Part shown: positions 1-61,511 of the stretch, one piece after another
How positions within the stretch are numbered: position 1 is the first letter of the stretch
Layout: the number at the start of each line of letters is the position of its first letter
Assembly: GCA_002070605.1 (NCBI GenBank)
Contig: MWDO01000004.1
Span: forward strand, 8,184 to 72,183
Direction: 5' to 3'
Source: Spirochaetes bacterium ADurb.Bin133
GTDB lineage: Bacteria; Spirochaetota; GWE2-31-10; MWDO01
Length of the DNA stretch: 64,000 bases
The notes under the pieces: generated by a model
Told to the model about the DNA's origin: nothing
What the model saw: the letters and a program-made list of their open reading frames with translations, nothing else
The model's database searches: none
Translations under genes and position numbers: made by a program

Positions 1-6
1 ATTTGT

Positions 7-2838
7 ATGAACTATGCCAACAGGGTAAAAGGGAATAGACGCGTCGGCGAGAAGGTTTTTATGCAAGGCGGGGTATGTTATAATAAAGCGGTGCCGGTCG
101 CAATGGCGGCTCTGACCGGCAAGGAGATAATCGTTCCGCCGGATCCGGGGCTTATGGGGGCTTTTGGAGTGGCGCTCGAAGCGAAAAAGCGTCTCGACAA
201 CAATCTTTTAGAGCCGGTCGAATTTGATCTCGACGCGCTTATTAATAGAGAGGTAACTTACGGTAAAAATTTCAAGTGCGCCGGCGGACAAGAGAAGTGC
301 GATATAGGCTGCGAAATTCTATCGATAATCATCGACGGCAAAACTTACGCATTTGGCGGCGCTTGCAATAAATATTACAATATTATCCATAAATTGAAAT
401 TTGACGAAGACAGATTAGATATAGTGTCGCGAAGGGAAAGACTGCTTTTCGGGAAATACGCTCCCGAATATCCCGTTTCAGAAAACAAGGTTATAGGTAT
501 AAACAGAAGTTTTTATACAAATACGTATTTTCCGCTATACTACAACTTTTTCAGCAAACTTGGTTTTAAAGTCATAGTATCGGAACATAGCGCAAAAGAG
601 GGGGAAGAGTCCCAACTATCTTCATTCTGTTATCCGATGCAGTTGGCTCACGGATTTTTCTGGGATCTCTTAGAAAAAAAGCCGGACTATATCTTTATGC
701 CGCACCTTGTTCAGATCGAGACGGACGGAGGATGCGACAATTGTTCTAAGCAAATCGGTTACCGTAAAGCGTGCGTATTCAATCAAGGCGAACCCTTTAC
801 GATGAAGGCGACCTTTAAGGATAAGATAGGTAATACCGAGATGCTTATACCGTTACTCGATTTTTCAAGAGGGATCGATAGGGAGAAGAAAGTTTTTATT
901 CGGCTTGCCGTCGACAAACTCGGGCGTAAAGCGTCGGACGCCGCCGCCGCTTTCGACGAAGCTCTAAAACTGCAAAGAGAGTTTTTTGCGGAAATGAAAA
1001 AAATCGGGGCGGATTTGCTTACCGAACTCGAGAAGAATCCCGATAAAATCGGAGTCGTTCTTTTTGGAAGGTCGTATAACGCTTTTACTGAAAAAGCGAA
1101 TCTCGGAATTCCCAGAAAATTTACGTCGCGCGGTATCGAGATATTTCCTTACGATATACTAAATTTTGAAGGGGAGACCTTCGAGCCGTTTATGCATTGG
1201 GGTATGGGGGAGACGATTCTCAAAGCCGTTCAGATAGTAAAAAGACACCCGCAATTGTTTGGAACTTTTATCACGAATTTCAGTTGCGGACCGGATTCTT
1301 TTATGGTCGAGCTTTTTAGAGAAGAGCTTGAAGGCAAGCCGTCGCTAACTTTGGAGCTTGACAGTCATAGCGCCGACGCCGGAGTCAATACCCGAATCGA
1401 AGCGTTCTTGGACGTCGTCAAATATTATAGAGAACTACAAAAAAACAATAAATTGGAAGAAAAAGAGAAGAGCGATTTCAAGCCGGCTTGGATAGAAGGG
1501 GAAGGGTTTAAAGCTAAGATTCATCTATCCGACGGAAAAACCGTTATATCCGCCAGATCCGATAAATACACCTTTATGTTTCCTTCTTTGTCGCGATACG
1601 TTATGGGACCTGCGAACGAATACCTCAATAAAATCGGGATCAAAGGGCGGCTCGTCCCGCCGACTACGATGGAGAGCATCAAACTTGGTCGTTCGCAGTC
1701 GTCGAGTAAAGAGTGTTTGCCGTTAGCTATAATGATGGGCAATATGATGACCTACATCCGGGATCATCACAAAAAGGGAGAGCCGTTGGTGCTTCTGCAC
1801 GCCACGGACACCTCCCCATGCCGATTGGAGCAGTATTACAACGGATTTAATAACTTTATCAAACGCAACAAGATAGAGAATTTTGCGGTTTTTAGACTCG
1901 ACGACCGAAAAGGTTACGCCGGATTTGGAACGGGACTTTTGTTGACGCTTTTTAAATCCTTTGTTCTCGGCGACGTTTTTGAGACTATAAAGAACGGCAT
2001 AATCGTTCTCGCCGAAGACAAAGAGTACGGCTTGAAAGTTATGGAGGAGGAGTTTGCCAAAATTACCGACAATTTCGGCGGGCGGGAAAAAATGTCTCTC
2101 AATAAACGCCTGAAACTATCGGCAAAACGAATCTCGGAGATCCCCAGAAAAATGGAGATAGACGACGCAAAATTCATAACTATAACGGGCGAAATATACG
2201 TCCGAAACGATCACTTTGCAAGAAGAAATATCGAGGGTTTTCTCGCCGAAAAGGGATTTATCGCCCATATTGTGCCGTTTATGGAAGTCCTGTTTTATAT
2301 CGATTATTGTCTTATGAACGATCTCACCGAAATAAACGTCAGTCCGTTTAAGAAGATCTACTTCTTCTTCAAGTCGTTTTTTCAACAAAAAATCGATAAA
2401 CAGATCAAAGATGTTTTTGCGAATTGCGGATTTTACAAACCGACTTATATAAATATTAAGGAGATAATAAATTCGTCGAGATTGATAGTAAGTCCCTATT
2501 TGAGAGGCGAAGTGCCGATAACGACCGGAGCGGCGTTGAAATATATCCTTAACGACGCGTGCGGAGTTATATCGATAGGACCTTTTGCGTGTCTTCCGTC
2601 TCGAATGGTAGAAAGTTTGTTAAAAACCAATATGAATCTTGTTCATAAGATCGCGCTTTCGCGTAAATATCCGCTTTACGAAGAGCTTGATAAAATGGGC
2701 GTTCGCAATCTGCCGTTTTTGCCGATAGAATCGGACGGCAACCCGTTTACGCAAGTTACGCAAGCGCAGATCGAAGTATTCTGTTTGCAAGCGGATAGAC
2801 TTCATAACAAGATGGTCGAAGCAAAGAAAAGGATATAA
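7..2838 (+). CDS. C-terminal ~940 aa of a giant activase-dehydratase fusion protein (BadF/BadG/BcrA/BcrD ATPase end followed by a 2-hydroxyglutaryl-CoA dehydratase D-component-like domain). The 5' end lies outside the window. Paralogue of 56668..60780.
   Basis: The ORF is open to the window edge. Its N-terminal visible stretch (GGVCYNKAVPVAMAALTGKEIIVPPDPGLMGAFGVALEA) is the characteristic end of an acetate/sugar-kinase-fold activase domain. The remainder aligns by eye with the C-terminal two-thirds of the 1370-aa protein at 56668..60780; the shared motifs include FCxP, GYxxxxxP and YDGxxxP. Confidence 0.75.
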   Translation: MNYANRVKGNRRVGEKVFMQGGVCYNKAVPVAMAALTGKEIIVPPDPGLMGAFGVALEAKKRLDNNLLEPVEFDLDALINREVTYGKNFKCAGGQEKCDIGCEILSIIIDGKTYAFGGACNKYYNIIHKLKFDEDRLDIVSRRERLLFGKYAPEYPVSENKVIGINRSFYTNTYFPLYYNFFSKLGFKVIVSEHSAKEGEESQLSSFCYPMQLAHGFFWDLLEKKPDYIFMPHLVQIETDGGCDNCSKQIGYRKACVFNQGEPFTMKATFKDKIGNTEMLIPLLDFSRGIDREKKVFIRLAVDKLGRKASDAAAAFDEALKLQREFFAEMKKIGADLLTELEKNPDKIGVVLFGRSYNAFTEKANLGIPRKFTSRGIEIFPYDILNFEGETFEPFMHWGMGETILKAVQIVKRHPQLFGTFITNFSCGPDSFMVELFREELEGKPSLTLELDSHSADAGVNTRIEAFLDVVKYYRELQKNNKLEEKEKSDFKPAWIEGEGFKAKIHLSDGKTVISARSDKYTFMFPSLSRYVMGPANEYLNKIGIKGRLVPPTTMESIKLGRSQSSSKECLPLAIMMGNMMTYIRDHHKKGEPLVLLHATDTSPCRLEQYYNGFNNFIKRNKIENFAVFRLDDRKGYAGFGTGLLLTLFKSFVLGDVFETIKNGIIVLAEDKEYGLKVMEEEFAKITDNFGGREKMSLNKRLKLSAKRISEIPRKMEIDDAKFITITGEIYVRNDHFARRNIEGFLAEKGFIAHIVPFMEVLFYIDYCLMNDLTEINVSPFKKIYFFFKSFFQQKIDKQIKDVFANCGFYKPTYINIKEIINSSRLIVSPYLRGEVPITTGAALKYILNDACGVISIGPFACLPSRMVESLLKTNMNLVHKIALSRKYPLYEELDKMGVRNLPFLPIESDGNPFTQVTQAQIEVFCLQADRLHNKMVEAKKRI

Positions 2839-29984: not shown

Positions 29985-29985
29985 T

Positions 29986-36770: not shown

Positions 36771-38096
36771 ATGAAAGTATTAATGTTAGCTTTAAACAGA
36801 GAAAAATTCCCGGATCCGGTTTTTCCGTTGGGGGCAAGTTATATAGCGGGAGCTTTGTCTAAAGCCGGGCATATTGTCGACGTTTTCGACGCCTGTTTTC
36901 TGGAAAATCCTCAAATCGAACTTGAGAACTTTCTTAAAGGAAAGAGTTACGATTCGATCGGAGTATCGATTCGAAACGTGGATAACAACAGTTTTCCGAT
37001 AGCAGAAAACTACCTTAACTATTATAAAAGCATGGTCGATATATGCAGAAAATATTCGAAAGCGCCTATTACTCTCGGCGGATCGGGTTTTTCAATATTT
37101 CCCGAACTCTATATGAAAGAACTCGGAGCCGACTACGGCATTAAAGGGGAGGGGGAGTACGCTTTTCTCGAACTTTTAAAAAAAATTGAGACCGGGGATC
37201 CTCCGACCGAAAAACTTTTTTATTCCGAGACTATAAAAGATATTAACTTTGATACGTTTCCCGATAGAAAAGGATTCGATATTGATAAATATTATAAGTA
37301 TTCCGGTTGTATTAATATTCAAACGAAAAGAGGATGCGCATACAATTGCTCTTACTGCACGTATCCCGTATTGGAAGGGAGATCCTATCGATTTCGCTCT
37401 GCAAAAAATGTTGTAGACGAGATCGAATTTTGGAACAAATCAAAAGGGATCGACTATATTTTTTTTGTAGATAACGTATTCAATCATCCTGAAAATTACG
37501 CGCTGGAAATTTGTAACGAAATAATCAGAAGAAAATTAAAAATCAAATGGACGGGATTCTTCACGCCGACGTTGTCCGATAATGAATTTATCGGCAAATG
37601 TTTGGAGTCGGGATTAACCAGCGCTGATTTTGGAACCGACGCCTTTTCGCCTGAAACTCTCAAAGGGTATAACAAATCGTTTACGGTTGAAGATATATTT
37701 AGAAGTTGCGAGATATGCAAAGAGAGAGGTATAAAATTTAATCATAGTTTGATATTCGGCGGACCAAACGAAACTATGGATACCTTAAAAGAGACTCTGG
37801 CAAACGTCGAACTAACCGCCCCAACTTCCGTTATAGGATTTATCGGAGTTAGATTATACGCCGGCACTCAGATTGCGGAGACGTTTAAAGACTTGGATAT
37901 AGGCATAACGCCGGTATTTTACATATCCGAAGCGGTTAGAGACGAGATATTGGATTATTTAGCGGAATATGTTAAAGACAAACGAAACTGGATTATTCCC
38001 GGACTGGAAAAGGGGACAAATTTAAGTTTAATAAACCGCATACGAAACAAAGGGGTTAAAGGACCTCTTTGGGAATTGCTTGTTAATTTAAAATAA
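36771..38096 (+). CDS. B12-binding-domain radical SAM protein
   Basis: N-terminal cobalamin-binding-like fold (VLMLALNREKFPDPVFPLGASYIAGAL) and radical-SAM cluster motif CAYNCSYC. Confidence 0.85.
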   Translation: MKVLMLALNREKFPDPVFPLGASYIAGALSKAGHIVDVFDACFLENPQIELENFLKGKSYDSIGVSIRNVDNNSFPIAENYLNYYKSMVDICRKYSKAPITLGGSGFSIFPELYMKELGADYGIKGEGEYAFLELLKKIETGDPPTEKLFYSETIKDINFDTFPDRKGFDIDKYYKYSGCINIQTKRGCAYNCSYCTYPVLEGRSYRFRSAKNVVDEIEFWNKSKGIDYIFFVDNVFNHPENYALEICNEIIRRKLKIKWTGFFTPTLSDNEFIGKCLESGLTSADFGTDAFSPETLKGYNKSFTVEDIFRSCEICKERGIKFNHSLIFGGPNETMDTLKETLANVELTAPTSVIGFIGVRLYAGTQIAETFKDLDIGITPVFYISEAVRDEILDYLAEYVKDKRNWIIPGLEKGTNLSLINRIRNKGVKGPLWELLVNLK

Positions 38097-48576: not shown

Positions 48577-50076
48577 ATGAAAAAACATTTGATTTTGGCG
48601 CTGTTAATTGCCGTCATGGCAGATATGTATCCGGTAAAAATTAAGATCGACCAAAAGGATAAAACGAAAGAGCCGATTATCTTACAGGCGATATTAGATA
48701 CCGGTTTCGGAATTGTCGGGGTAAACGACGGCGTTGGGGTAACGGATTATCAATCTTATTTTATCAAGACCGCTTTTCATATTAATGATTTTGGGATCGG
48801 TTTGGATTTTACTATCAGGTTTAAAATATTCTCTTTGGAACCCGAGTTCCGTTTTCGCGATTGGTATATCGAAGGGGATCCGTTGGCGACCGTTTTTTTA
48901 TATCTCGACAGGATAGATTATATACGATACGGGAACGCGCAAAGCCCGATTTTTTTTACGACGGGCAAGATTCCTTATACGACTTTCGGATCGGGGACGC
49001 TTGTAAACAATTTTCATAATAACTTTTTTGTCCCGATTAATAAAGAAAACGGCGCGTATTTTCGCCTCGACGGAGAGTATTTTGAAAAATATAAGATAAA
49101 AAACATCCCTATCAATTTTACTTTTTTTTGCCCGGATTTACTGGATCCCGACATATTTGGATTTGATTTCAATATAAACCCCCTTGGATTTGCTAAATTC
49201 AAAGATATTTTCAAATTATCGTTAGGCGTTACTTTTATGTCGGATCTTGATACTTTTGAGAGAAACAGGCTGAGCGCTCTCAAAGGGCAATATTTTCAAA
49301 GCCATAGAAATTTTCACGTTAACGGATTTAGTTCGGCGTTGATTAGCGGATCCGTTCCGATATCTTTTGTATATTTTAAAAAGGATTACGTCAAAGTATC
49401 TGTAATCGACGAAGTAGCTTTTGCATACAACGGAGCCAATCCGTCCGATCCGGATAAGTCCGATTTTGGGATTGCCAATAATCTTGAAGTGGAAGCGAGA
49501 TTCTTAAACGTTAAGAATTCCGGATTGCTTTTAGGATTAAGCTCCGGATTTATCGTTCAAGGCAAAGATTTTTTTATAAATTATTTTTCCTCTAACTACC
49601 AGATAGTCAGGCAGAAGCAGTATAGCGGGCAGAGCGAAGATTATAATTTATACGTATCTGCGGGATTTGGTCTGTACGCTTTAAACGACAATTTGCATTT
49701 CAAATTTAAGATACTAATGCCGTTAATAACGGACGTATTCAAATCTAAATACGCGATGGAATTTAGATTGTCCGAATTTGCCGTTAAAGGGTTGACGATA
49801 GACGTTTTTTATGAAACGGGATGTACCGATCTGCACATATCCGGATCAAACGGGGGACACTTTCTCGAGTCGATAACGGAGAATTTCAGATTTTACGCCG
49901 AAGTAAGCTATAAGATTTATTCCGCTAAGATAAGTTTTATTATCGGGCTTCAAACTCCCGGTTGGATAGTCGAGGAAGACTATTTGCCGCCGGAAAATCC
50001 TAACGAGTTTTATATAGAGAGATATGGCGCTGATATTCAAAAATTTGTCGGAGTGGGGGTGTCTTTTGTTTTATAA
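48577..50076 (+). CDS. Hypothetical secreted / outer-membrane-like protein
   Basis: Signal peptide MKKHLILALLIAVMA. Aromatic-rich alternating pattern. C-terminus ends in a hydrophobic residue. No domain recognised. Confidence 0.5.
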   Translation: MKKHLILALLIAVMADMYPVKIKIDQKDKTKEPIILQAILDTGFGIVGVNDGVGVTDYQSYFIKTAFHINDFGIGLDFTIRFKIFSLEPEFRFRDWYIEGDPLATVFLYLDRIDYIRYGNAQSPIFFTTGKIPYTTFGSGTLVNNFHNNFFVPINKENGAYFRLDGEYFEKYKIKNIPINFTFFCPDLLDPDIFGFDFNINPLGFAKFKDIFKLSLGVTFMSDLDTFERNRLSALKGQYFQSHRNFHVNGFSSALISGSVPISFVYFKKDYVKVSVIDEVAFAYNGANPSDPDKSDFGIANNLEVEARFLNVKNSGLLLGLSSGFIVQGKDFFINYFSSNYQIVRQKQYSGQSEDYNLYVSAGFGLYALNDNLHFKFKILMPLITDVFKSKYAMEFRLSEFAVKGLTIDVFYETGCTDLHISGSNGGHFLESITENFRFYAEVSYKIYSAKISFIIGLQTPGWIVEEDYLPPENPNEFYIERYGADIQKFVGVGVSFVL

Positions 50077-52828
50077 CAAAAGAAATCTTCCGATTATTGT
50101 AGTTTTCTTGTTTTTTTTTGCGCGGTTTTCTGTAAACGCCGGCGAAGCATTTTTACAACTGATCGATACTTCCGATAGCTCGTCGGACTATTTTTTTTAC
50201 GACAAAGATTCTAAGGAAAATCTTATAAAAATTAACGATTATCTCTATTCCGGATCGACCTTTCTGACGCTTGAGAAACAGAGAGCGGAATTTGTCATAA
50301 TTAAGGACTATACGCCTATCGGTTCTATAGTATTAAGCGAAAATAGCGATTTTTATTTTTACAACGCTGGCGCTAAAAACAAAATTTACTTAAAAATGAA
50401 TTACGGTAGAATAAGGAGCGTTATAGACGAGGGAAACCAAATTGAGATAGAGCTAAAATCTGTAAAACTATACAATAACGGCGGCGATTTTGGCGTAACG
50501 ACTATATTAAACGAAGAAAAAGATCTCGTCGGTTATACGATCGTTTTTAACGGAGTAGTGGAGAATTATTTGATCAAAGATAATAGATCGGTAAAACTTG
50601 AAAAATGGGATAAGGCGGGCTTTAACGAAAATACCCTTGAAGAGATAGAGAAATTTACTCCGGAAGATCTGGAAATATGGCAAGAAAAGATGTCTTTTAA
50701 CTCTTACTATATTTCTAAAACGACGCCGATAGTTTTAGAGAGCTTATCGTTTGATACGATTGAACAATTTTCCGACCCGACCGGCGATTTATTAATGATA
50801 AGCGACTTAACGGAGGATATTCCCGACCAAAACGACCCGACGGAAGACTTAACGGCTCCGGAATTTAAGCGAGATGAAACCGAGGAAACAGATAAAACGG
50901 AACTAATGCCTCCTAAAGAGGAGATTTTTGCAGAATTAGCCAAAATTAAGCCGAAAAACTTCGTTTTAGACGAAGATTCCGATAGAGATTATACTTACGC
51001 CCCCGAATCTAAACTAAAAGAGCCGCTTTATCCCGTTATAGAAGATAAATTGATCCCAATTATGTTTATAAGCAAAACCGGCGAGGTAGACGAAGATATC
51101 GAGTCGGAGAAGGAGAGTCCGCTTAAAGAATATATCGAAGACGCTGAGCCTATTTTTAGCGATACGGACGACTCAAACGACGTTTTCGACGATATTGCTT
51201 TGCTTGACGAAACTTCGGATGCGGAAGTTCCGGACGCCGACGAGTCGGCCGACAGCGTTGTTATCGAGCCGAAAATTGAAAGCAAGATCGTCGTTAAAGA
51301 TCAAACGTCGGACTTGAAAGCGATAAAACTGCTGAGATTTTTTTCGTCGTTTTTCGCTAATGAAACGGGATTTTATAGTTACGATAAAAAGACCTGCGTA
51401 AAATTTGTATGGAAACCGGGCGTCGCGCTGGAAAAAGAAAAATTTGAATTTAGTTTTTATTTTCCCGTATTTTTCTCCGTAGACAAAATGTTTGCAAATA
51501 ATATGTTGTTGCCCGTCAATAATACCAATAACGAGTGGTCGTTTGGGTCGGATCAAAACGGCTCGACGGTAAAAATCGTTCTCGACGCCGTCGACGACGC
51601 TTTGTTAAAATTGAGAATACTCAGATACAATAACATAAACGATAATTTCTTCTTTCAGATGGGGGAGTTGAACAATTTTTCAGACTCCTCGAGATTTTCG
51701 CTGGTAAATTTTTGTTCTAAAATATTCTTCCCTATGTATAGAAAAACCTCGTTCATAATAAAAGGAGAGTCTAATATATTTGAAGGATTTTTCTATGCGG
51801 AAGATATTCTGCCGAAAGGGCTTTACGGACTGTCGTTGAAATTTATGACGCCGTATTCGAGTTTTAAATTCAAGTTTGGAATAGATATATTTGCCGACGG
51901 CTACGATTTTATGAATTTTGACAAGGGGCGCGAGCTGTATTTTCCGACGCAAGTCAATCTTATTTCGGAATTCAACGCCTTCAATATACCGTCGTTTAGT
52001 TTCTCTATATTCTTGAATATGGGGGCGCTATTTCCGTTGTCTTACAATTTCGGATCGAATAGTTCGCTCGCCATTAATACTATAAAAACTAATCCCCTTA
52101 TGCTAGTCGATAATATCTCCGCCGCTATGGGGCTGTCGATCAGGATTAAGAAACTGCAGTTTATCGGGGAGATAATCGCCGATTCGGGGTTGAACAAAAT
52201 CGGACTTTTCGATCTATCCTATTCGGCAAAAAGAGACCAAAGGATGACCGACTCGATAAATTGGTTGACCTCTACCGGCGCAAAACCGATCTCCATATCT
52301 AATTACAATTTTGGGGCGAGAGTAAGTTTCCTGATAGATATAGATAAATATCTCTATATGGAAACTTCATATCAAGCGACTTTTACTTACTATAAGACGA
52401 TAATTTTTTCAAAGAGTTATTACGACAAATTTTTCTTTAAGTTCTCGGCGGATTCGCGAGACAAATTAAAGATAAATCTTAAACTCTACCTCGAATGGCA
52501 GATAGAAAATCTAGCGGTAAGCATAATCGATACGATAGATCAAAAATACGAAACTATTTTCGATAACAATATTTTCTATCTGGGCTTCTCGATCAAGCCG
52601 CATAATATTGTCGATATAAATATCCGCGGCGGCTTGTATCCCGACTTCTACAATACGACGACCGATATGAAACTGCTATTCGACTGCTACGTCTCGATAA
52701 ACCCCGAGCCGCTTCCGCTAAAAAAGACGCCGCCGAAAAAACCGATTGAAACAAAAACAACAAAAACAACAAAGACAAAGAAAACAACGACAAAAAAATC
52801 GGAAAATAAACCGCCGCCGGCTAAATAA
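50066..52828 (+). CDS. Large hypothetical secreted protein with an acidic disordered region and a basic KTT-repeat C-terminus
   Basis: Signal peptide follows the TTG at 50066 (MFYNKRNLPIIVVFLFFFARFSVNA). The track start at 50024 overlaps the upstream gene by 53 nt. D/E-rich segment around 50760-51290. C-terminus KTTKTTKTKKTTTKK. Confidence 0.5.
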   Translation: MFYNKRNLPIIVVFLFFFARFSVNAGEAFLQLIDTSDSSSDYFFYDKDSKENLIKINDYLYSGSTFLTLEKQRAEFVIIKDYTPIGSIVLSENSDFYFYNAGAKNKIYLKMNYGRIRSVIDEGNQIEIELKSVKLYNNGGDFGVTTILNEEKDLVGYTIVFNGVVENYLIKDNRSVKLEKWDKAGFNENTLEEIEKFTPEDLEIWQEKMSFNSYYISKTTPIVLESLSFDTIEQFSDPTGDLLMISDLTEDIPDQNDPTEDLTAPEFKRDETEETDKTELMPPKEEIFAELAKIKPKNFVLDEDSDRDYTYAPESKLKEPLYPVIEDKLIPIMFISKTGEVDEDIESEKESPLKEYIEDAEPIFSDTDDSNDVFDDIALLDETSDAEVPDADESADSVVIEPKIESKIVVKDQTSDLKAIKLLRFFSSFFANETGFYSYDKKTCVKFVWKPGVALEKEKFEFSFYFPVFFSVDKMFANNMLLPVNNTNNEWSFGSDQNGSTVKIVLDAVDDALLKLRILRYNNINDNFFFQMGELNNFSDSSRFSLVNFCSKIFFPMYRKTSFIIKGESNIFEGFFYAEDILPKGLYGLSLKFMTPYSSFKFKFGIDIFADGYDFMNFDKGRELYFPTQVNLISEFNAFNIPSFSFSIFLNMGALFPLSYNFGSNSSLAINTIKTNPLMLVDNISAAMGLSIRIKKLQFIGEIIADSGLNKIGLFDLSYSAKRDQRMTDSINWLTSTGAKPISISNYNFGARVSFLIDIDKYLYMETSYQATFTYYKTIIFSKSYYDKFFFKFSADSRDKLKINLKLYLEWQIENLAVSIIDTIDQKYETIFDNNIFYLGFSIKPHNIVDINIRGGLYPDFYNTTTDMKLLFDCYVSINPEPLPLKKTPPKKPIETKTTKTTKTKKTTTKKSENKPPPAK

Positions 52829-52904
52829 ATTTTCGGAATTTACCGCTCTCCGCTATCTTTATTTTTAAAAAAAGATCGACAAGCGCTTGAAATTATGTCG
52901 CAGT

Positions 52905-53075
52905 CTGTCGGCGTTTTGGGGCTAAAAATTTTTGACACATATGCGTCGCATAATAATTCGACGCATATGTGTCAATTTCTTCATCGAGAAGCGGCGCGTA
53001 TCATATGTGTCAATTTCTCATCGAGGAGCGACGCGTATCATATGTGTCAAATTCTATCAAGACGCGTCGAGGCGC
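52905..53075. repeat. Array of four to five palindrome units with left end TGTCGGCGTTTTGGGG
   Basis: CATATG centres lie at 52939, 52964, 53002 and 53039. Tandem sub-unit TCATCGAGGAGCGACGCGTATCATATGTGTCAATTTC. Confidence 0.65.
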
Positions 53076-53256
53076 ATAATATATCTAAAAAATATTTGAC
53101 AATTTTTCAATTTAGTTTATACTCGTTCGATATTGAAAAAATATTTCTATCGCCCGATTGAAAACTACGGACGGCGAAAGCGCGAAGCGTTTTCAGCGGG
53201 ATATACGGCATTCTTTGAAACGCAATATTTAACAACTTAATTAAGGAGATTTTGGC

Positions 53257-54558
53257 ATGGCATATCCAAAAAGAATTGTAATAACCGGAATGGGAATAAA
53301 CGCGCCTAACGGCGATACTCCCGAAACTTTTTATAATAATCTTATAGCAGGGAAGTCCGGTATAAAAAAAATGACGAGCGTTAACACCGATAGAATCAGA
53401 TGTAAGATCGGAGGCGATCTGGGAGACTACGACGTTAGAGGAAAGTTGGACTCGTTGAAAGATAATATTCCGGAAGACGTTTTAAAAAGAGCTAAAAAGA
53501 TCATAAAGACCGCCCCTTTTTCGACAAAGCTTACGCTTCTAGCCGCTTTGGACGCTTACAAAGACGCCGGATTATTTAAAAACGCCCCCGATCCGGACAG
53601 AATGGCGGTAGTTTTGGGGGGACACAATTTCCACGACAACTACATTGTAAAGAACGTAAGGCAATTTGAAGAAGAGCCGGAGTATATAGACGGATTGATG
53701 GGTATCTGCGTTTTTGATAGCGACGTTGCGGCAAGTATAACGGAATCCTTACAAATATATGGGCCTATGTACATAACCGGCGGCACTTGCGCAAGCTCGG
53801 GTATGGCGATGAAAAACGGCATAATGGAGATATTGTACAACGATTGCGATATTGCTATGATCGGCGGGGGGCTTTTGGATTATTCAGACGTAGGATATCA
53901 AGCTCTTATTTTAGTAAGCGCGATTTCGTATAAAAGTTTTAACGACGAGCCGGAAAAGTCCTCCAGACCGTACGACGTTAGAAGAGAGGGATTTGTTCCG
54001 TCCCACGGAACCGGTATAATGATTATCGAGGAGTTGGAACATGCGTTAAAGCGAGGAGCTCATATCTACGCCGAGATACTGTCCGTCGAGTCAAACTGCG
54101 ACGGCAACCACTTATCAAATCCATCGGTAGAGGGGCAGACTAAAGTTATGAAAAGAGCCATTCAAAAAGCCGGGATTAAAGTTGAGGATATAAGCTACGT
54201 TAATTGTCACGCTACTTCTACTCCTCTTGGAGACGAGGTAGAGCTTACGACTATAAAAAACGTTTTTGGCGAACACGCTAAGAATATTAAGGTCAACGCC
54301 ACAAAATCGATGATAGGTCATACCGGCTGGACTTCTAATACGGTAGAATTAATTGGAGCGATTATGCAGATGAATAACTCGACTCTGCATCCTTCTATAA
54401 ATATCGAAAATCTTGATCCGAAAATTGCCGCTTTGGGGATAGACGTTTGCGCCAATAAAAAAGTTGAAAATTATAATATTGACTATTTGTTGAAAAACTC
54501 TTTTGGTTTCGGCGGCATAAACTGCTGTTCGATAATAAAAAAATGGAAGGGAAAATAG
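53257..54558 (+). CDS. Beta-ketoacyl synthase (FabF/FabB-like KAS). Cys-His-His triad retained; GH-box divergent.
   Basis: N-terminus RIVITGMGINAPNGDTPETFYNNLIAGKSGI. Cys in GGTCASSGMA, His in NCHATSTPLGDEVE, and His in KSMIGHTGW, which departs from the canonical GHLLGAAG. Confidence 0.85.
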   Translation: MAYPKRIVITGMGINAPNGDTPETFYNNLIAGKSGIKKMTSVNTDRIRCKIGGDLGDYDVRGKLDSLKDNIPEDVLKRAKKIIKTAPFSTKLTLLAALDAYKDAGLFKNAPDPDRMAVVLGGHNFHDNYIVKNVRQFEEEPEYIDGLMGICVFDSDVAASITESLQIYGPMYITGGTCASSGMAMKNGIMEILYNDCDIAMIGGGLLDYSDVGYQALILVSAISYKSFNDEPEKSSRPYDVRREGFVPSHGTGIMIIEELEHALKRGAHIYAEILSVESNCDGNHLSNPSVEGQTKVMKRAIQKAGIKVEDISYVNCHATSTPLGDEVELTTIKNVFGEHAKNIKVNATKSMIGHTGWTSNTVELIGAIMQMNNSTLHPSINIENLDPKIAALGIDVCANKKVENYNIDYLLKNSFGFGGINCCSIIKKWKGK

Positions 54559-54562
54559 AGAG

Positions 54563-55702
54563 ATGGATTTCTTAGATAAATATTTAATTGATCAATTGGT
54601 TAAAGACGCGGAAGACGTTTGGCCGAAAAGGTGGAGCGAGATTGAAAGTTCTTTTCAGAAAATTACGCTGTCGGCCGCCGTCGACATTATTATTTGGGAT
54701 TTATCGCTTTTTTCAAAAAAGGGCGATACCGGAACTTATTCTGATATGAAAAATACGGTAGGCATAACGCCGGACAATGAATACGTATTTAAAAAACTTT
54801 TAGATATCCTTGTCGAAGAAAATATTTTATCGCGCGAGGGCGAAGTTTACGTATGCGTCGATAACGATCCGGAGATTCATTCTCCGATAGAGTATATAGC
54901 GGAGGCGGTAAGAGACATTCCGGAAGAGTGGGCCGCTTTCCAATGGCTGGCTAGAGGTATCGGCGGATTGAAGAGATTTATCAAAGGAAAACTATCCGGC
55001 GAAGAGGCGATGTTTGGTCCGTGGGGCGATTTTACCTTAGTAGGTCAAGTATATTATACCAGCGAAGTTTACGGTTATTGGTCTAAGCTCGCCGGTAAAA
55101 CTGTAACGCGGCTTATAAACAACGTTTTTGATAGAAAAATAACCGTTTTGGAGATTGGAGCGGGAACCGGCGGAGGAACGACCGATTTGTTTAAAAGTTT
55201 GGGCGAACCTAGAAACAAAATCGAGAAATATATTTTTACCGATATTCATAAAAGATTGGTAAAAAAGTCTTCCAAAAATTTTGAGGAATATTTCGATTTT
55301 ATGGAATTTAAGGGATTAGACGTAACTCTTCCGCTTGAAGAGCAGGAGGTCGATCTTGAAAGCGCCGATCTGTTATACGCCGTAAACGTCATGCACGCGA
55401 CAAACAATATACTATCGGCTTGTTCCGCAATGTATAAGCTTATTAAAAAAGGGGGGTATGCCGTTCTTGGCGAAATAGCCCCGCCTAAAGATAAACTTTA
55501 CAGGTATATGGAGCTTACGTTTGGGTTATTATCAAGCTATTCGTATTACGAAGATAAAGAGTTGCGACCGCTGTCTCCGATCTTAAGACCCGAACAGTGG
55601 ATAGAATATTTTAAAAAAGCGGGCTTCAGAGACGCTATTGCGATACCGGGAGATAGATTGCCCGGTTGCGACAGGGGCGGAGCGATTATTGCGATAAAAT
55701 AG
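54563..55702 (+). CDS. Class I SAM-dependent methyltransferase, polyketide/O-MT-like
   Basis: Motif I VLEIGAGTGGGT. 379 aa. Begins 5 nt after the KAS stop. Confidence 0.6.
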   Translation: MDFLDKYLIDQLVKDAEDVWPKRWSEIESSFQKITLSAAVDIIIWDLSLFSKKGDTGTYSDMKNTVGITPDNEYVFKKLLDILVEENILSREGEVYVCVDNDPEIHSPIEYIAEAVRDIPEEWAAFQWLARGIGGLKRFIKGKLSGEEAMFGPWGDFTLVGQVYYTSEVYGYWSKLAGKTVTRLINNVFDRKITVLEIGAGTGGGTTDLFKSLGEPRNKIEKYIFTDIHKRLVKKSSKNFEEYFDFMEFKGLDVTLPLEEQEVDLESADLLYAVNVMHATNNILSACSAMYKLIKKGGYAVLGEIAPPKDKLYRYMELTFGLLSSYSYYEDKELRPLSPILRPEQWIEYFKKAGFRDAIAIPGDRLPGCDRGGAIIAIK

Positions 55703-55738
55703 TCCTGTTTCAATAATTATAATTCGGAGAAATATCTT

Positions 55739-56596
55739 ATGAGTAATTTTAGAGTCGCGTATTTACTTATCGTTTTGGTTTTGTTATTTGGCTGTTCGGT
55801 GAAAAAAGATGCAAAATATTATAAAAAGGTTGAAAATCTTTTTATTGACAATAAAATAGACAAAATATTAAAAATAGCGGGAAAAAATGAAAATAAGATC
55901 GACGTGAATTTAATTTTTTTTTCCATAAGACATAACAAACCGGAATTACTAAAAAGATTTATTCCGCGCTCGCTGACCTCCGATTACGCCAAAAATGATC
56001 TTTTCAAATCTGCGATTATATCCGAAGCGATTGATTCCGGGAGCGTTGAAATGTTTAAGATCGTCGACGATCAAATAATCAACGACGACGATTTCTACAT
56101 AAAATATAATAATTTTGAAGGGACAAAACTTGATAAAGCGGTTCAATGCGGCGACAAGGAGATGATCGACTATCTGCTAAGTAAAAATTCGAAAGGAGTA
56201 TGGACTCTCTGCTATGCGGTACAGAAGAATGATATCGAACTTGTCGATAAAGTGTTTCATACAGGCTCGGGTAAAACCTGGGATTTTGCTCTGGTGGTCG
56301 CGGTACAACAGGGCAGTTTTGATATTATCAAATATTTTATCGAACAAAAAAAAATATCGCCAAATATATATTTTGAATGGAAGCCGGATTACCCGCCGTT
56401 TGTGAGAGAATTTTACGAACTATACCAGGTAGATCCCGGCGGCGGTTATACGGAAACGGCTACCGGAGAAGCGTTGAGATTTATGAATATGATGGTAGTC
56501 GATTATTTAAGATCCAAAGGGGGAAAGTCCATGAAAGAACTTGGATTTACTCCGCCTAAACCTTCCGAAGAATTTCATAGCGACCATACGCATTAA
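55739..56596 (+). CDS. Lipoprotein with ankyrin-like repeats
   Basis: Lipobox LLFGCS. Repeated helix-pair motifs (DKAVQCGDKEMIDYLLSKN, CYAVQKNDIELVDKVF, ALVVAVQQGSFDIIKYFIEQ). Confidence 0.4.
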   Translation: MSNFRVAYLLIVLVLLFGCSVKKDAKYYKKVENLFIDNKIDKILKIAGKNENKIDVNLIFFSIRHNKPELLKRFIPRSLTSDYAKNDLFKSAIISEAIDSGSVEMFKIVDDQIINDDDFYIKYNNFEGTKLDKAVQCGDKEMIDYLLSKNSKGVWTLCYAVQKNDIELVDKVFHTGSGKTWDFALVVAVQQGSFDIIKYFIEQKKISPNIYFEWKPDYPPFVREFYELYQVDPGGGYTETATGEALRFMNMMVVDYLRSKGGKSMKELGFTPPKPSEEFHSDHTH

Positions 56597-56667
56597 AAAG
56601 AAACCGTGTTTCAGACGTAAAACGATAGATATGGATAGATACAAGCGCATAAATTTGATTCATACGG

Positions 56668-59600
56668 TTACGATTTACTTTTATTCCTTAGATAATACAG
56701 TTGCGGAATAATTATTTTATTAGGTTTGTTATTTCCGTCGTAAAAAATATCGATGATCGGTATATTGAAGTCCTTTTGAATTTTTCTAAAAATTGACGCG
56801 GAAACTACCCCGGGACAGCAGAATAACGGATTGAGATGGACCATAGCGTCTACGGTATTATGTTTTATATAATAGAGCGCTCGTCCGACGTTCATCGAGG
56901 TTTCGCCGGCTATAAAATTATTTATCCCAAACTCTTCCATTAGTTTAACCTGCTCCTCCATCGGCGGTTCGAACGAATCCTCAAGTAACTCTTTAAAAAC
57001 ATTCTCATATCGCCTTTCAAAGAGCGATAAGCCGCGTTTGTATTTGATATCAAGCCCGTTATCTCTATAATCGGCGTCCAAAAAGTGAGCCGCGGTTTCC
57101 GTAAAGGAAGGAACTAGAACTTCGCCGTCAAGTTCTTCTATTAGAGAGTATATATCGTCGTTAAGAATAAAGTTATATTTTGCGTAAAGATCGCCGAGTA
57201 CTGCGATACGGGGCTTTCTAACGCTCATATCGACTTGAAGGTTTTGAAATAAATTTTTAATTTCTTTAGCGGCTTCCATTAATGGCTTTTTGTTAGTCAG
57301 ATTGGTTTTGATTAACTCCATCGATCGATTTAGCGCGTCGTCTATATCGGGCGGGTTCTTCGTATAAGGGCGGAATTTATAATATAGTTTATATAAAATT
57401 GATCCCAAAATGTTTACTTCGAGAATATTAACGTTCAACTCTTTTGGAAGTTCGTCGATATGCTTCATTGAGTTGCCGTTGGCGATTTTTATCTTATCGT
57501 AGCCGGCTTTCTCCGAAGCCAATTCGAGAAGTATTGAATATTGATTAAAGTTGCACGCCATACATAGAGTAGGGAGATAGACTATACAATTTTCAGGATT
57601 TAAAGAATATTTTTCTATCGATTCAATTAAGGAACCCGAGATAGCGACGTTCGGCATACACTCCCCGCCCGAAGCGTATCTATATCCTTTGTTTATAATT
57701 TTTTGATCGAGAGGCATTACTATGGCGTTATATCCGTAAGCGGTAAATACAGATTTTTGAAGTTCGCTGATAATGGGACTTACATAAGGTATGAGAACGG
57801 TATCGTTCGGTTCGATAGAATCGTTTTTATACGACTTTATCTCTATGTTTTTGGGAGCGGCGGATTTATGATTTTTGAAGGTCTCAATCGCCGCTTCTAT
57901 TCGAGTTTGATAACCGACGTCGCTGGAGTGTTCGTCGAGCTGAATTATGAGATACGGTTTGTTGTAGCGATTCATAATATCTTTGAAATAACTTATGAGA
58001 TACGAGTCGGGACTGCATCTAAAGCATGTCAGAAATACCGGAAAAAGATTTTCGGTTTTGGCGGCAAATTCGGCCGCGCATATTATCTCTTGTCCGAAAA
58101 TCCAGTGCGCTTTATCAATGAATCTTTTAGCGTAATCGAGTTCTTGAGGTTTAAGTTCTAGCATCGATTGATAAAGAATATCAAATCCGTAATTTTCAAA
58201 CGTTTTTGGGATATTTAAATTTACGACGTTATCAAAAAAAGTATACGGACGCCCGAGAAAGAGAATTTTACTTTTATCGACGTTTTTTAGTATATTCTCG
58301 CCGGCTCTCCTAAATTTCTTTTTGTTTTCAAGGAATTTGTTATAAGAATCTAAAAACATCTCTCTGAGTTTTTCAGAGTCGATATTTGTTATTTTGGAAG
58401 TTATATCGATCAATTCTACGGAAATATCGTTGGTATTAGATTTGTTAAACTTCATTTTTGGCGAGATTAATTTATCTTTAATATTAAGAGCGGTTAGATT
58501 ATCTATAATCGTTGCGGCGTATTCCGAGTAGTAACAATAATACCCGTCGTTGATTTTATCGATGAAATACTCCGTTTCAACCTCATTTTTTATCAAACTT
58601 TTATTGTTGATAATCGTCGGAAAAAAAATGTAGTCGACTTTTTTGTTTTGCAACGACTCGACGAGACCGTGAGCGAGCAGCATAGGCGCGCAAAAGTCGG
58701 AATTGACCAATTTAGAGCCGTTTTTCATCTTTGCTTGGGAGGGCTCCTCTATTATTACTTCAAAACCCGCTTTTTCAAAAAAACTTTTAAATAGCGGATA
58801 GAATTCCGTTAAATAGAGCGTTTTTGGAATTCCGATAATTTTTCCGTTTTTTTCAACTCCGGAAATATTTTCGATAAACGTCGAATTAAATATCTTATCG
58901 ATCGCCGTTTTGGTCTCTTTAACTTTTACTTTATGATCTTCGTATTCTCTGCCGCATTTTAGCCCCCACGCGACTTTGTTTCCGCGAACTTCGTATATCG
59001 AAAGGGCGCATTTGTTTACGCACAGTTCGCAAACTTCCGTAGATAATTTAAATTCAAAGTCTATTCCTGAAAACTTAGACTTTTGATAATTTCTCTCTTT
59101 CAAAATGACCGCGATTCCCAGAGCGCCGGTCAGATGACAATATTTCGATACAAATATCGGCTTTTTGATCTCCTTCTCAAATACGGCGACAAGAGCTTTA
59201 TTTCGCGCGGTGGCTCCCTGAAAAAATATTTTATCTCCAAGATTTTCCCGACCCGCCACTTTAGAGAGGTAGTTGTCTCTTACGCTGTAAAGAACGGCGG
59301 TTATTATCTCTTCTTTGGAATAGCCCTCTGAAAGAAACAAATTTAGATCTCTTTCCATATACACTGTACATCTATCCGAGGTATATGGGGCTTTTCTTCC
59401 AAGCGCCATTTTTGATATATCGTCGAGCGTTATGTCCAGGCGTTTCGCTTGCTCCTCGATAAACGAGCCGGTGCCGGCCGCGCAAACGTAATTCATCGTC
59501 GAACTTACGACGTTTCCATTTTTTAAAAGAGTGAATTTTGAGTCCTGTCCGCCGATCTCGATAATTGTGTCGACGTCGTTGGAAAGAAAGGTCGCGCCTC

Positions 59601-60780
59601 TCGCGTGAGCAGTTATCTCGTTTATTTCCAGATCCGCGTTAATTATCTCTTTGACTAATTTTCTGCCGGAGCCGGTCGTTCCGACTCCTAATATGTTTAT
59701 CTTTTTCCCTGAAAATATTTTTTTAACCTTTTGAAAAATATTTTGAGTCGCTTTTACCGGATCGCCCGCGGTTTTTGTATATAATCCGTATAGGATTTCA
59801 TTATTTTCGTCCGTAATTATCGACTTTGTGCTGGTAGAGCCGATATCAATCCCGATATAAACGTCGGCGACCTCTTTTACTTCCGAATATTTTGTTATCT
59901 CAATGTTGTCTTCGATATAAAACTCGTCCTCGTAAAAATTTGGGTAGTCGGTCGACTCGAGTTTTAGTTCGTCTCTTATCTCTCTTTTGGTAGAGATATT
60001 AGATATAACATTTTTTAAATTCAGGTCTTTTTCTTTACCCAAAAGCGCCGCGCCGATAGCGTTAAAATATGCGCTTTCAGGTATAATTTTGACGGGGCTT
60101 CCCAAAATTTTTGAAAGTTCGGAAACGATTTTTTTATTCTTGCTCACTCCGCCCGCAAATAAAACTCCGCCTTTTAACGTCCTCCCTTTCAACAAATTTG
60201 CAAGAACTCCGCGAGCCATACCTTCGCAAAGTCCCGCGGCGATCGCCTCTTTAGTAAAGCCCTCGGCTTGCGAGTGTATAATATCGGATTTTGCAAAAAC
60301 GGCGCATCTGGTAGCGATAACCGGAGTTTTCCCTTGAAATTTATACGATAATTCGCCTAACTCCTCGCTGGTAAGTCCTATTCTTTCCGCTTGTTGATCG
60401 ATAAAACTTCCGGTGCCCGAAGCGCATAAAGGATTGATAGCGTGTTCTATATAGTTAAAATTTTCGTCAAGAATAATTAACGAATAAGATTCGCAACCGA
60501 TAGTGAGAATATTTCGGCAACCGGTCGATAAATACCTATTTGACTCAACGCTCGCAAGTATCGTATCTATAGTTTTAATTCCTTTTAGATCGACGCTCCC
60601 GCAAATTCCGTAAGATTCAATATCTTTTAAGCTAAATTTTTGAAGCAAAATCTCGATTTCTTCTATTAAGTTCTTGAAAATATTGCCGTTATGAGGAAAA
60701 GTTTTATGAAAAACTACGCCTGAATCTTCCAAGAGAACTATCGAAATATTTTTTGAGCCTATATCGATTCCTAATTTCAT
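56668..60780 (-). CDS. Giant 1370-aa fusion protein: two BadF/BadG/BcrA/BcrD-type (activase-like) ATPase domains plus a 2-hydroxyglutaryl-CoA dehydratase D-component-like domain. PlsA/PlsR (anaerobic plasmalogen synthase)-like architecture.
   Basis: Two N-terminal actin-fold ATPase modules (LGIDIGSKNISIVLLE.. and YIGIDIGSTSTKSII..) with conserved Cys pairs. C-terminal HgdB-like module with FCAPMLLAHG and CPGVVSA motifs. Confidence 0.8.
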   Translation of the reverse strand: MKLGIDIGSKNISIVLLEDSGVVFHKTFPHNGNIFKNLIEEIEILLQKFSLKDIESYGICGSVDLKGIKTIDTILASVESNRYLSTGCRNILTIGCESYSLIILDENFNYIEHAINPLCASGTGSFIDQQAERIGLTSEELGELSYKFQGKTPVIATRCAVFAKSDIIHSQAEGFTKEAIAAGLCEGMARGVLANLLKGRTLKGGVLFAGGVSKNKKIVSELSKILGSPVKIIPESAYFNAIGAALLGKEKDLNLKNVISNISTKREIRDELKLESTDYPNFYEDEFYIEDNIEITKYSEVKEVADVYIGIDIGSTSTKSIITDENNEILYGLYTKTAGDPVKATQNIFQKVKKIFSGKKINILGVGTTGSGRKLVKEIINADLEINEITAHARGATFLSNDVDTIIEIGGQDSKFTLLKNGNVVSSTMNYVCAAGTGSFIEEQAKRLDITLDDISKMALGRKAPYTSDRCTVYMERDLNLFLSEGYSKEEIITAVLYSVRDNYLSKVAGRENLGDKIFFQGATARNKALVAVFEKEIKKPIFVSKYCHLTGALGIAVILKERNYQKSKFSGIDFEFKLSTEVCELCVNKCALSIYEVRGNKVAWGLKCGREYEDHKVKVKETKTAIDKIFNSTFIENISGVEKNGKIIGIPKTLYLTEFYPLFKSFFEKAGFEVIIEEPSQAKMKNGSKLVNSDFCAPMLLAHGLVESLQNKKVDYIFFPTIINNKSLIKNEVETEYFIDKINDGYYCYYSEYAATIIDNLTALNIKDKLISPKMKFNKSNTNDISVELIDITSKITNIDSEKLREMFLDSYNKFLENKKKFRRAGENILKNVDKSKILFLGRPYTFFDNVVNLNIPKTFENYGFDILYQSMLELKPQELDYAKRFIDKAHWIFGQEIICAAEFAAKTENLFPVFLTCFRCSPDSYLISYFKDIMNRYNKPYLIIQLDEHSSDVGYQTRIEAAIETFKNHKSAAPKNIEIKSYKNDSIEPNDTVLIPYVSPIISELQKSVFTAYGYNAIVMPLDQKIINKGYRYASGGECMPNVAISGSLIESIEKYSLNPENCIVYLPTLCMACNFNQYSILLELASEKAGYDKIKIANGNSMKHIDELPKELNVNILEVNILGSILYKLYYKFRPYTKNPPDIDDALNRSMELIKTNLTNKKPLMEAAKEIKNLFQNLQVDMSVRKPRIAVLGDLYAKYNFILNDDIYSLIEELDGEVLVPSFTETAAHFLDADYRDNGLDIKYKRGLSLFERRYENVFKELLEDSFEPPMEEQVKLMEEFGINNFIAGETSMNVGRALYYIKHNTVDAMVHLNPLFCCPGVVSASIFRKIQKDFNIPIIDIFYDGNNKPNKIIIPQLYYLRNKSKS

Positions 60781-60861
60781 AAGAATTTCCTTAACAAAAA
60801 GATGTATTTATAAATATTTATATTTAATTACTATATAAATGTCAAATTAATATTATTTGTA

Positions 60862-61039: not shown

Positions 61040-61249
61040 ATGAGAACAATAATAATAAAAACTACCGATAAATCCTATAATCAAGTTATTAGTTTAATAA
61101 AAAAAATTCCGGATATTAAATATTACGACGACGAAGACGATGTTTTTACTGAGGAAGATGAAAAAGCGTATATTGAAGCAAAAAAAGAATTAGAAAATGG
61201 CGAAACAAAATCATGGGATGAATTAAAAAAGGAACTAAATCTTGTATAA
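61040..61249 (+). CDS. Putative antitoxin of a RelE/ParE module
   Basis: A 69-aa acidic protein overlapping the toxin start by 8 nt. AT-rich. Confidence 0.45.
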   Translation: MRTIIIKTTDKSYNQVISLIKKIPDIKYYDDEDDVFTEEDEKAYIEAKKELENGETKSWDELKKELNLV

Positions 61250-61511
61250 GATTGAAATTTCAAAAAGCGTTGAGAAGTTCTTAAAATCTAGAAATAGAAA
61301 TGTTCAAATAAAAATTAGTAAAATGATAGATGTTATTTCAGTTAATCCATTTATTACTAATCTTGATATAAAAGAGCTTAAAGGTAATAAAAATCATTAT
61401 AGACTAAGAGTTGGTAAATATCGCATTTTATATGAAATAATCGACGAAAAGATATTAATATATTTTTATAAAGCAGATTCAAGAGGCGATATTTATAAAA
61501 AGTCTGGTTAG
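61242..61511 (+). CDS. Type II toxin, RelE/ParE family; paralogue of 28276..28533
   Basis: HYRLRVGKYRILYEIIDEKILIYFYKADSRGDIY is the RelE/ParE C-terminal hallmark. Confidence 0.75.
   Translation: MYKIEISKSVEKFLKSRNRNVQIKISKMIDVISVNPFITNLDIKELKGNKNHYRLRVGKYRILYEIIDEKILIYFYKADSRGDIYKKSG

Follow-up and report, generated by a model that had tools for sequence, protein, structure and literature searches.

A complete PlsA/PlsR-Ger family gene and a truncated deep paralogue in an uncultured spirochaete: a candidate lipid ester-to-ether reductase

The ether lipids of bacteria blur the archaeal/bacterial 'lipid divide' and underlie sedimentary proxies such as the alkylglycerols and the brGDGTs (glycerol dialkyl glycerol tetraethers of the branched type), and plasmalogens are also of nutritional interest. 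Here we describe a 64,000-nucleotide stretch of contig MWDO01000004.1 from the uncultured, low-GC Spirochaetes bacterium ADurb.Bin133 (the window), which holds a complete gene for a single-polypeptide homologue of PlsA+PlsR and Ger (56668..60780, minus strand; 1370 aa, 154.6 kDa) and, at its left edge, part of a second and deeply divergent member of the same family. By analogy with characterised homologues, the 1370-aa protein is probably an ATP-driven reductase that converts lipid esters to ethers, from the PlsA/PlsR-Ger family, which is part of the superfamily of HAD (2-hydroxyacyl-CoA dehydratase) and BCR (benzoyl-CoA reductase) enzymes.

Characterised PlsA and Ger enzymes

Every member of this family with a demonstrated activity turns a glycerolipid ester into an ether (PMC12838417, PMC13159169, PMC11150832). 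PlsA, the plasmalogen synthase, has been demonstrated in Clostridium perfringens, Enterococcus faecalis, Lactococcus cremoris and Bifidobacterium longum, with Megasphaera elsdenii and Streptococcus mutans also cited (PMC12838417), and Listeria monocytogenes is reported to make plasmalogens anaerobically (PMC9702350). An earlier note on this DNA, made from the sequence alone, knew PlsA/PlsR as the one characterised system, but this overlooked the 'modified PlsA' or glycerol ester reductase, Ger, of Thermotoga maritima (Tmari_0479/AGL49404) and Desulfatibacillum alkenivorans (SHJ90043), which in anaerobic Escherichia coli converts sn-1 esters to saturated 1-O-alkyl ethers (PMC13159169, PMC11150832). 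The D. alkenivorans Ger (1458 aa, 159 kDa), expressed alone in E. coli, also gave some diethers, and the Ger2 of the same organism (SHK01260; 153 kDa), 25.9% identical to Ger, gave no ether lipid in that host (PMC11150832). Nor did the homologues from Thermodesulfobacterium geofontis and Kuenenia (PMC11150832; bioRxiv 10.1101/2022.04.21.487849 supplement).

The family has already been reported in Spirochaetes (PMC13159169), and genomes with two homologues have been published for D. alkenivorans and Bacillota (PMC11150832, PMC13274423), the hypothesis being that such genomes combine one PlsA with one Ger (PMC13274423). The vinyl-ether and alkyl-ether enzymes cannot yet be told apart by sequence, a 2026 paper stating that assignment from primary structure is currently impossible (PMC13274423), and the roles of the extra paralogues in many anaerobes are unsettled. 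The window offers a clean natural pair of such paralogues, one complete and one truncated.

Architecture, fold and family membership of the 1370-aa protein

The gene is a single ORF of 1370 codons with an ATG start. Selection on it is strongly purifying, with a dN/dS of 0.054 in comparison with an orthologue of 87% identity, and the 120 best relatives returned by a protein search include one that is 99% identical; we therefore regard the gene as intact and real.

As the earlier note had recognized, the protein begins with two tandem BadF/BadG/BcrA/BcrD-type ATPase modules. Both PF01869 (BcrAD_BadFG; E 8.4e-65) and TIGR00241, a generic activase domain and the sole NCBIfam match (292 bits), hit in two stretches, and sequence matches in the PDB are confined to these modules, with solved activators at E 1e-18 to 1e-32. 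On the minus strand, the first module, Act1 (aa ~1-255; 60016..60780), carries Cys119, Cys159 and a degenerate phosphate-1 loop, and the second, Act2 (aa ~305-560; 59101..59868), carries Cys433, Cys471 and a canonical loop. They are followed by a four-cysteine (Cys4) linker, C584-x2-C587-x3-C591 ... C609 (58945..59043), which is a predicted additional [4Fe-4S] site, and by two catalytic halves. Red1 (aa ~645-970; 57871..58848; Cys697, Cys749, Cys922) consists of DUF2229 (PF09989, E 5.5e-42) and an HGD-D-like tail, and is the counterpart of the C-terminal part of C. perfringens PlsA; Red2 (aa 979-1370; 56671..57846; Cys1041, Cys1076, Cys1321) is the counterpart of C. perfringens PlsR.

The 'HgdB-like' module of the earlier note holds at the level of fold, but not by family score, as PF06050 (HGD-D) reached 24.6 bits against a gathering score of 28.4 and matched over the last 48 profile positions only. 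Because sequence models hardly recognize this part of the protein, we modelled aa 560-1370 with AlphaFold, using an alignment of 30 relatives as input (mean pLDDT 85.4, pTM 0.85). A Foldseek search of the PDB with the model gave 13 chains below E 1e-3, every one a catalytic subunit, from HadBC-type dehydratase, double-cubane-cluster protein (DCCP; 6eno, 7yyl) and the benzoyl-CoA reductases BzdNO and MbdON (8s02, 9g87, 9gai), the best being (R)-2-hydroxyisocaproyl-CoA dehydratase (3o3m_B, E 2.3e-7). Red1 (aa 644-975) and Red2 (aa 979-1370) are themselves homologous in an hhalign profile-profile comparison (probability 96.5%, E 8.6e-10), in which the three conserved cysteines of one pair up with the three of the other. 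The catalytic part is therefore a pseudo-heterodimer in one chain, comparable to a dehydratase's alpha and beta subunits.

With HadBC/HadI, HgdAB/HgdC, the class I benzoyl-CoA reductases and DCCP/DCCP-R, the protein has in common the activator ATPase fold with its cluster-bridging cysteine pair, the fold of the catalytic subunits (probability 1.00 and E 2e-7 to 5e-5 in Foldseek) and, by analogy, presumably the logic of ATP-driven low-potential electron transfer. It differs from them in being one fused chain with a Cys4 linker, whereas those systems are multi-subunit, and in the sequence of the catalytic subunits, where identity is ~10-15% (14% for the 2-hydroxyacyl-CoA dehydratase) and PF06050 stays below threshold. 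Its characterised relatives, moreover, use lipid esters, whereas the HAD, BCR and DCCP systems use CoA thioesters.

Full-length similarity is found with PlsA and PlsR. A published cloning primer (PMC12838417 Table S6) led us to the C. perfringens plsA-plsR operon on a metagenome contig, with a PlsA of 975 aa from a TTG start and a PlsR of 420 aa whose C-terminus agrees with the reverse primer. By BLASTP, aa 2-1356 of the 1370-aa protein are collinear with 4-1379 of the concatenated PlsA+PlsR at 27% identity, a collinearity of about 1360 residues, and the boundary between the two clostridial proteins falls at about residue 975. The module order of C. perfringens PlsA/PlsR (CPE1194/CPE1195) is the same, with Act1, Act2, Cys4 linker and Red1 followed by Red2 as PlsR, and the single-gene PlsA proteins of Listeria, Enterococcus, Lactococcus and Bifidobacterium are fused into one chain, as is the spirochaete protein. 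A second PlsA reference, the L. monocytogenes homologue, came from a mislabelled chromosome in a plasmid collection, in which members of clades A and C, defined below, were absent; it shares 47% identity with C. perfringens PlsA+PlsR and 27% with the 1370-aa protein. The published plsA primers for E. faecalis and L. cremoris had no exact match in viral contigs. PlsA-specific sequence motifs are said to have been described by Jackson et al. in 2021.

An alignment of 157 family members was used to read cysteine conservation. Clustering over 809 shared columns, with relatives taken from protein searches and from the matches listed in a genome-contig scan, resolved four deep groups: A, containing the 1370-aa protein; B; C, containing the truncated paralogue; and D, containing C. 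perfringens PlsA+PlsR, with L. monocytogenes PlsA placed beside it by its 47% identity. None of the 14 cysteines named above, in a pattern of 2+2, 4, 3 and 3, varies within clades A, B and C, and C. perfringens has them all. By analogy with HAD and BCR structures, from which cluster binding is taken, they predict four [4Fe-4S] clusters. Both the 1370-aa protein and the visible part of the paralogue, where every family-invariant cysteine is retained, thus have the conserved ligands that the earlier note asked about. Further invariant cysteines are clade-specific, with C548 and C1322 in A and B and C1073 in A only, and set the 1370-aa protein apart from PlsA/PlsR.

The phosphate-1 loops also differ. 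C. perfringens and L. monocytogenes PlsA have a canonical loop (G-I/L-D-x-G-S-T-T-x-K) in both ATPase modules, whereas clades A, B and C have it in Act2 only and Act1 is degenerate. In the 1370-aa protein the Act2 loop is GIDIGSTSTK (aa 310-319) and the Act1 loop GIDIGSKNIS (aa 4-13, window 60742-60771), as compared with GIDAGSTTLK in PlsA, GIDIGSVS in clade B and GICLGAST, with Cys for Asp, in clade C. Outside the Bacillota clade, then, the activator pair may be asymmetric.

Clade A comprises uncultured Spirochaetota (Spirochaetes bacterium GWB1_27_13 at 63% identity), Omnitrophota, Elusimicrobiota and Desulfobacterales such as Desulfoluna and Desulforegula, the latter order at 45-52% identity to the 1370-aa protein. 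Clade B includes Desulfobacula, Desulfocicer vacuolatum, Ca. Anammoxibacter, Holophagaceae, Bacteroidales and Leptospirales, and clade C has members from Spirochaetota and, in very large number, from Desulfobacterales, at 1440-1490 aa. Identity is 33-36% between A and B, 26-30% between A and C, 25-29% between B and C, and 24-27% from any of the three to C. perfringens PlsA+PlsR, for which BLAST scores are 386-389 bits in clade A, 297-339 in B and 300-324 in C. Within Desulfobacterales, the proteins measure 1370-1383 aa (149-154 kDa) in clade A, 1401-1425 aa (155-159 kDa) in B and 1438-1497 aa (160-166 kDa) in C. Clade A is small: the catalytic half had 456 matches at E<=1e-30 among 1.84 billion 50%-identity representatives, and among the best 150 of these 20 were at least 40% identical, two of the 20 being full length. 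As the earlier note had said of the family, relatives are annotated as 'predicted CoA-substrate-specific enzyme activase' or 'acyl-CoA dehydratase activase'.

In a Planctomycetales metagenome-assembled genome (MAG; locus L026, from 2318), a relative at 39% identity stops at the boundary between the PlsA and PlsR parts, after ~1041 aa. Proteins near clade A may thus come in both split and fused form, like those of the Bacillota clade.

The second paralogue (1..2838, plus strand) is present from ~60 aa before the end of Act2, and continues through the Cys4 linker and Red1 to Red2. Its frame is open from base 1, and the gene is therefore cut by the window edge, in agreement with the truncated paralogue of the earlier note; full-length orthologues are about 1440-1470 aa. 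It is 26% identical to the 1370-aa protein and aligns with C. perfringens PlsA+PlsR at 23% identity. At 44.6% GC, the stretch that contains it (1-2000) is the richest in the window, as compared with 38-39% around the 1370-aa gene (56001-60000) and 30-33% in some other stretches. Among Spirochaetota relatives the paralogue is conserved at 75-81% with many hits, and the 1370-aa protein at no more than 63% beyond its 87% relatives.

Ester-to-ether reduction and its possible products

Our data are consistent with a model in which the 1370-aa protein is a soluble or peripheral, oxygen-sensitive, ATP-dependent reductase; electron path, lipid substrate and ether formation are here modelled on the characterised homologues. 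Act1 and Act2 would come together as the two subunits of an HgdC dimer do, with one [4Fe-4S] cluster between them on Cys119/159 and Cys433/471, and ATP hydrolysis would push a low-potential electron through the Cys4 linker cluster into Red1/Red2. These halves, which resemble the HAD alpha and beta subunits, would each hold one three-cysteine [4Fe-4S] cluster. They would act on an acyl ester of a membrane glycerolipid, most likely at sn-1, reducing its carbonyl and then dehydrating it to give an ether bond.

Several points weigh against this reading. Identity to validated PlsA is 27%, the Act1 loop is degenerate where that of validated PlsA is canonical, and beyond the nearest relative the gene neighbourhood lends no support to a lipid role. 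The literature yielded no biochemically tested member of clade A, and the source organism is uncultured and has no lipid record. Furthermore, Ger2 and the T. geofontis and Kuenenia homologues made no ether lipid in E. coli. Because the 1370-aa protein lies outside the proven plasmalogen-synthase branch, its ether product is not readable from the sequence, and a vinyl ether, an alkyl ether or another specificity beside the clade C paralogue carry roughly equal weight.

That the protein is a true plasmalogen synthase, making sn-1 alk-1-enyl (vinyl ether) lipids as the earlier note proposed, is possible but doubtful. The fused architecture is that of the single-gene PlsA of facultative anaerobes, the protein is collinear with C. 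perfringens PlsA+PlsR and keeps all the shared cysteines, and clade A scores above B and C against that reference. Membership of the PlsA/PlsR-type fusion family thus stands. Orthology with validated PlsA, however, fails, since the 27% identity compares with 47% between the two references and the protein clusters apart from the Bacillota PlsA clade. The Act1 loop, too, is unlike that of either reference, and the clade's relatives are Desulfobacterales, Omnitrophota and Spirochaetota MAGs, for which we found no plasmalogen record; literature searches on lipids in Desulfoluna and in environmental spirochaetes brought up no usable phenotype. Finally, the published inseparability of PlsA and Ger (PMC13274423) tells against any call of plasmalogen synthase from the sequence.

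A Ger-type glycerol ester reductase, giving saturated 1-O-alkyl and possibly dialkyl glycerol ethers, is a tentative reading of the same standing. Ger belongs to the same family and, like the 1370-aa protein, is found in anaerobes only; the closest cultured relatives among the matches listed are in Desulfobacterales, the order of the Ger source D. alkenivorans. Sister clade B, at 33-36% identity, includes Ca. Anammoxibacter and Holophagaceae, relatives of which make alkyl ethers and have 'modified PlsA' genes (PMC8788747, PMC13159169). The weak Pfam string at E<=10 (B for PF01869, D for PF09989, H for PF06050), B2 D2 H2 in the 1370-aa protein and B2 D2 H1 in clade B, is compatible with the published Ger strings (BBD+H/D), in which two PF01869 and one PF09989 (BBD) are followed by short PF06050/PF09989 hits (PMC13159169).

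We rejected this domain string as a discriminator between PlsA and Ger, because C. perfringens PlsA/PlsR gives a similar one, and its authors likewise call it non-diagnostic (PMC13274423). A transmembrane helix, annotated '1*' in published Ger, was no more helpful: a convincing hydrophobic helix was found in none of the clades.

Against a Ger-type function for the 1370-aa protein stands the probable position of Ger itself. D. alkenivorans proteins are absent from the 120 best relatives of the 1370-aa protein; neither D. alkenivorans nor T. maritima appeared among the matches listed in the genome-contig scan (MAGs and a few cultured Desulfobacterales); the 120 proteins listed by a Desulfobacterales clade C profile search were all metagenomic or from MAGs; and two protein-cluster look-ups returned no Desulfatibacillum or Thermotoga accessions. 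Ger and Ger2 were therefore placed by their published sizes and identity, without their sequences. At 25.9% identity, as compared with 33-36% for an A/B pair, one of the two must lie in clade C or D. We lean slightly towards Ger in clade C, and the most economical arrangement has Ger in clade C and Ger2 in clade A or B: the 153 kDa calculated for Ger2 is close to the Desulfobacterales clade A and B sizes (149-159 kDa), and its ~26% identity to its partner matches that of the 1370-aa protein to the clade C paralogue. Two weak hints run the other way, namely that clade C has no weak PF06050 hits and that A and B score slightly above C in BLAST against C. perfringens PlsA+PlsR. If Ger is a clade C protein, then the truncated paralogue, to which size and published identity suggest D. 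alkenivorans Ger is nearer, and not the 1370-aa protein, would be the counterpart of the validated alkyl-ether enzyme.

Somewhat less likely still is a different specificity beside the clade C enzyme, such as sn-2, a glycolipid, cardiolipin or a partner-dependent step, with the protein perhaps inactive alone like Ger2. The earlier note had suggested two substrate classes for the two paralogues, and two specificities are indeed plausible. Single genomes combine two or three of the deep clades, A with C in the window organism and A with B in the Desulfobacteraceae MAG SO_2017_GW1_28 (L012, L031), and pairs have been published for D. alkenivorans and Bacillota (PMC11150832, PMC13274423); clade A is small and is marked by its own C1073 and, with clade B, by C548 and C1322. 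There is, however, no direct evidence for an alternative substrate, and, as a single D. alkenivorans Ger already gives diethers in E. coli (PMC11150832), a second enzyme is not required for sn-2. We consider it rather unlikely that clade A carries out a reaction distinct from those of both PlsA and Ger, in concert with the clade C paralogue of the same genome, the candidates being sn-2 etherification, action on a non-phospholipid acyl lipid, and reduction of a vinyl ether to an alkyl ether. Were this the case, the A+C pair here and the A+B(+C) sets of Desulfobacterales would supply the parts still lacking from the anaerobic pathway by which mesophilic bacteria make dialkyl glycerol diethers.

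It is improbable that the protein is not a lipid enzyme at all but a fused activator and dehydratase or reductase whose substrate is a CoA thioester or small molecule. In favour of this are the structural matches, the best being HadBC, DCCP, BzdNO and MbdON, and the database names, which all say acyl-CoA dehydratase activase. However, 2-hydroxyacyl-CoA dehydratases, YjiL/YjiM-type double-cubane reductases and benzoyl-CoA reductases are multi-subunit, whereas this protein is a single fused chain; the likeness to them is confined to the fold or to the ATPase part; PF06050 falls short; full-length collinearity is found only with PlsA+PlsR-type proteins; and the genes flanking it, in the window and at the relatives' loci, include none for amino-acid fermentation or aromatic degradation.

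With lipid ester-to-ether reduction as the preferred function, the 1370-aa gene is itself an expected homologue, because Spirochaetes homologues and multi-paralogue genomes have already been reported; its value is mainly as an expression candidate from clade A. The framework of clades A, B, C and Bacillota PlsA, together with the degenerate Act1 loop, could guide the choice of enzymes to express.

Gene signals and neighbourhood

The minus-strand sequence at 60786..60845 contains a putative promoter and ribosome-binding site for the 1370-aa gene, read from the sequence as TTGACA (60845-60840), a 17-nt spacer, TATAAA (60822-60817) and AAGGAAA (60792-60786), the last 5 nt before the ATG. A consensus promoter scanner did not list the TTGACA-17-TATAAA site, its rule demanding T at the sixth -10 position. 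The next gene on the same strand is 733 bp away and the downstream gene is convergent, and the 1370-aa gene therefore looks monocistronic.

The genes behind the lipid-centred context described in the earlier note all exist: a β-ketoacyl-ACP synthase (KAS; 53257-54558, plus strand), an S-adenosylmethionine (SAM) methyltransferase (54563-55702, plus strand), PlsC-type acyltransferases (15451-16197 and 29977-30705), a YegS/DAGK lipid kinase (29055-29984), FabI (5052-5825) and a long-chain acyl-CoA ligase (2878-4758). They are, however, dispersed over 64 kb amid flagellar, helicase, peptidase, two-component and central-metabolism genes. The only adjacent lipid genes belong to an apparent KAS-SAM methyltransferase-ankyrin repeat operon (53257-56596, plus strand), which adjoins the 1370-aa gene in convergent orientation. 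This trio is kept beside the 87% orthologue (L092), but not beside the 63% orthologue (L093/L094) or that of Desulfoluna spongiiphila (L095). As it is kept only in the nearest relative, the context adds little, and we rejected a conserved neighbourhood as functional evidence beyond genus level.

The best match of the trio's KAS is not a housekeeping FabF but PRK07103, 'polyketide beta-ketoacyl:ACP synthase', at 327 bits where the cut-off is 445, and the 87% relative also has a second KAS upstream. The three genes may make a modified, perhaps methylated, acyl chain. Just upstream of the KAS are ORFs of 499 and 934 aa (48577-52828, plus strand, with a 53-nt overlap) and of 88 aa (52895-53161, plus strand), which gave no Pfam match at E<=1 and are missing at the corresponding place in the 87% relative.

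Elsewhere in the window, a B12-binding radical SAM protein of 441 aa (36771-38096, plus strand) scores 383.5 bits, above the NCBIfam equivalog cut-off of 360, on TIGR04072, 'rSAM_ladder_B12, lipid biosynthesis B12-binding/radical SAM protein', and a QueF-like gene (35946-36767, plus strand) ends 4 nt upstream of it. The TIGR04072 gene is a second marker of unusual lipid chemistry beside the two PlsA/Ger-family genes.

The 733-bp gap upstream of the 1370-aa gene contains a two-gene pair on the plus strand (61040-61511). An acidic ORF of 69 aa (61040-61249) overlaps by 8 nt a gene for an 89-aa protein of the ParE/RelE toxin family (61242-61511; PF05016, 25.2 bits against a cut-off of 23), and the pair is probably a type II toxin-antitoxin module.

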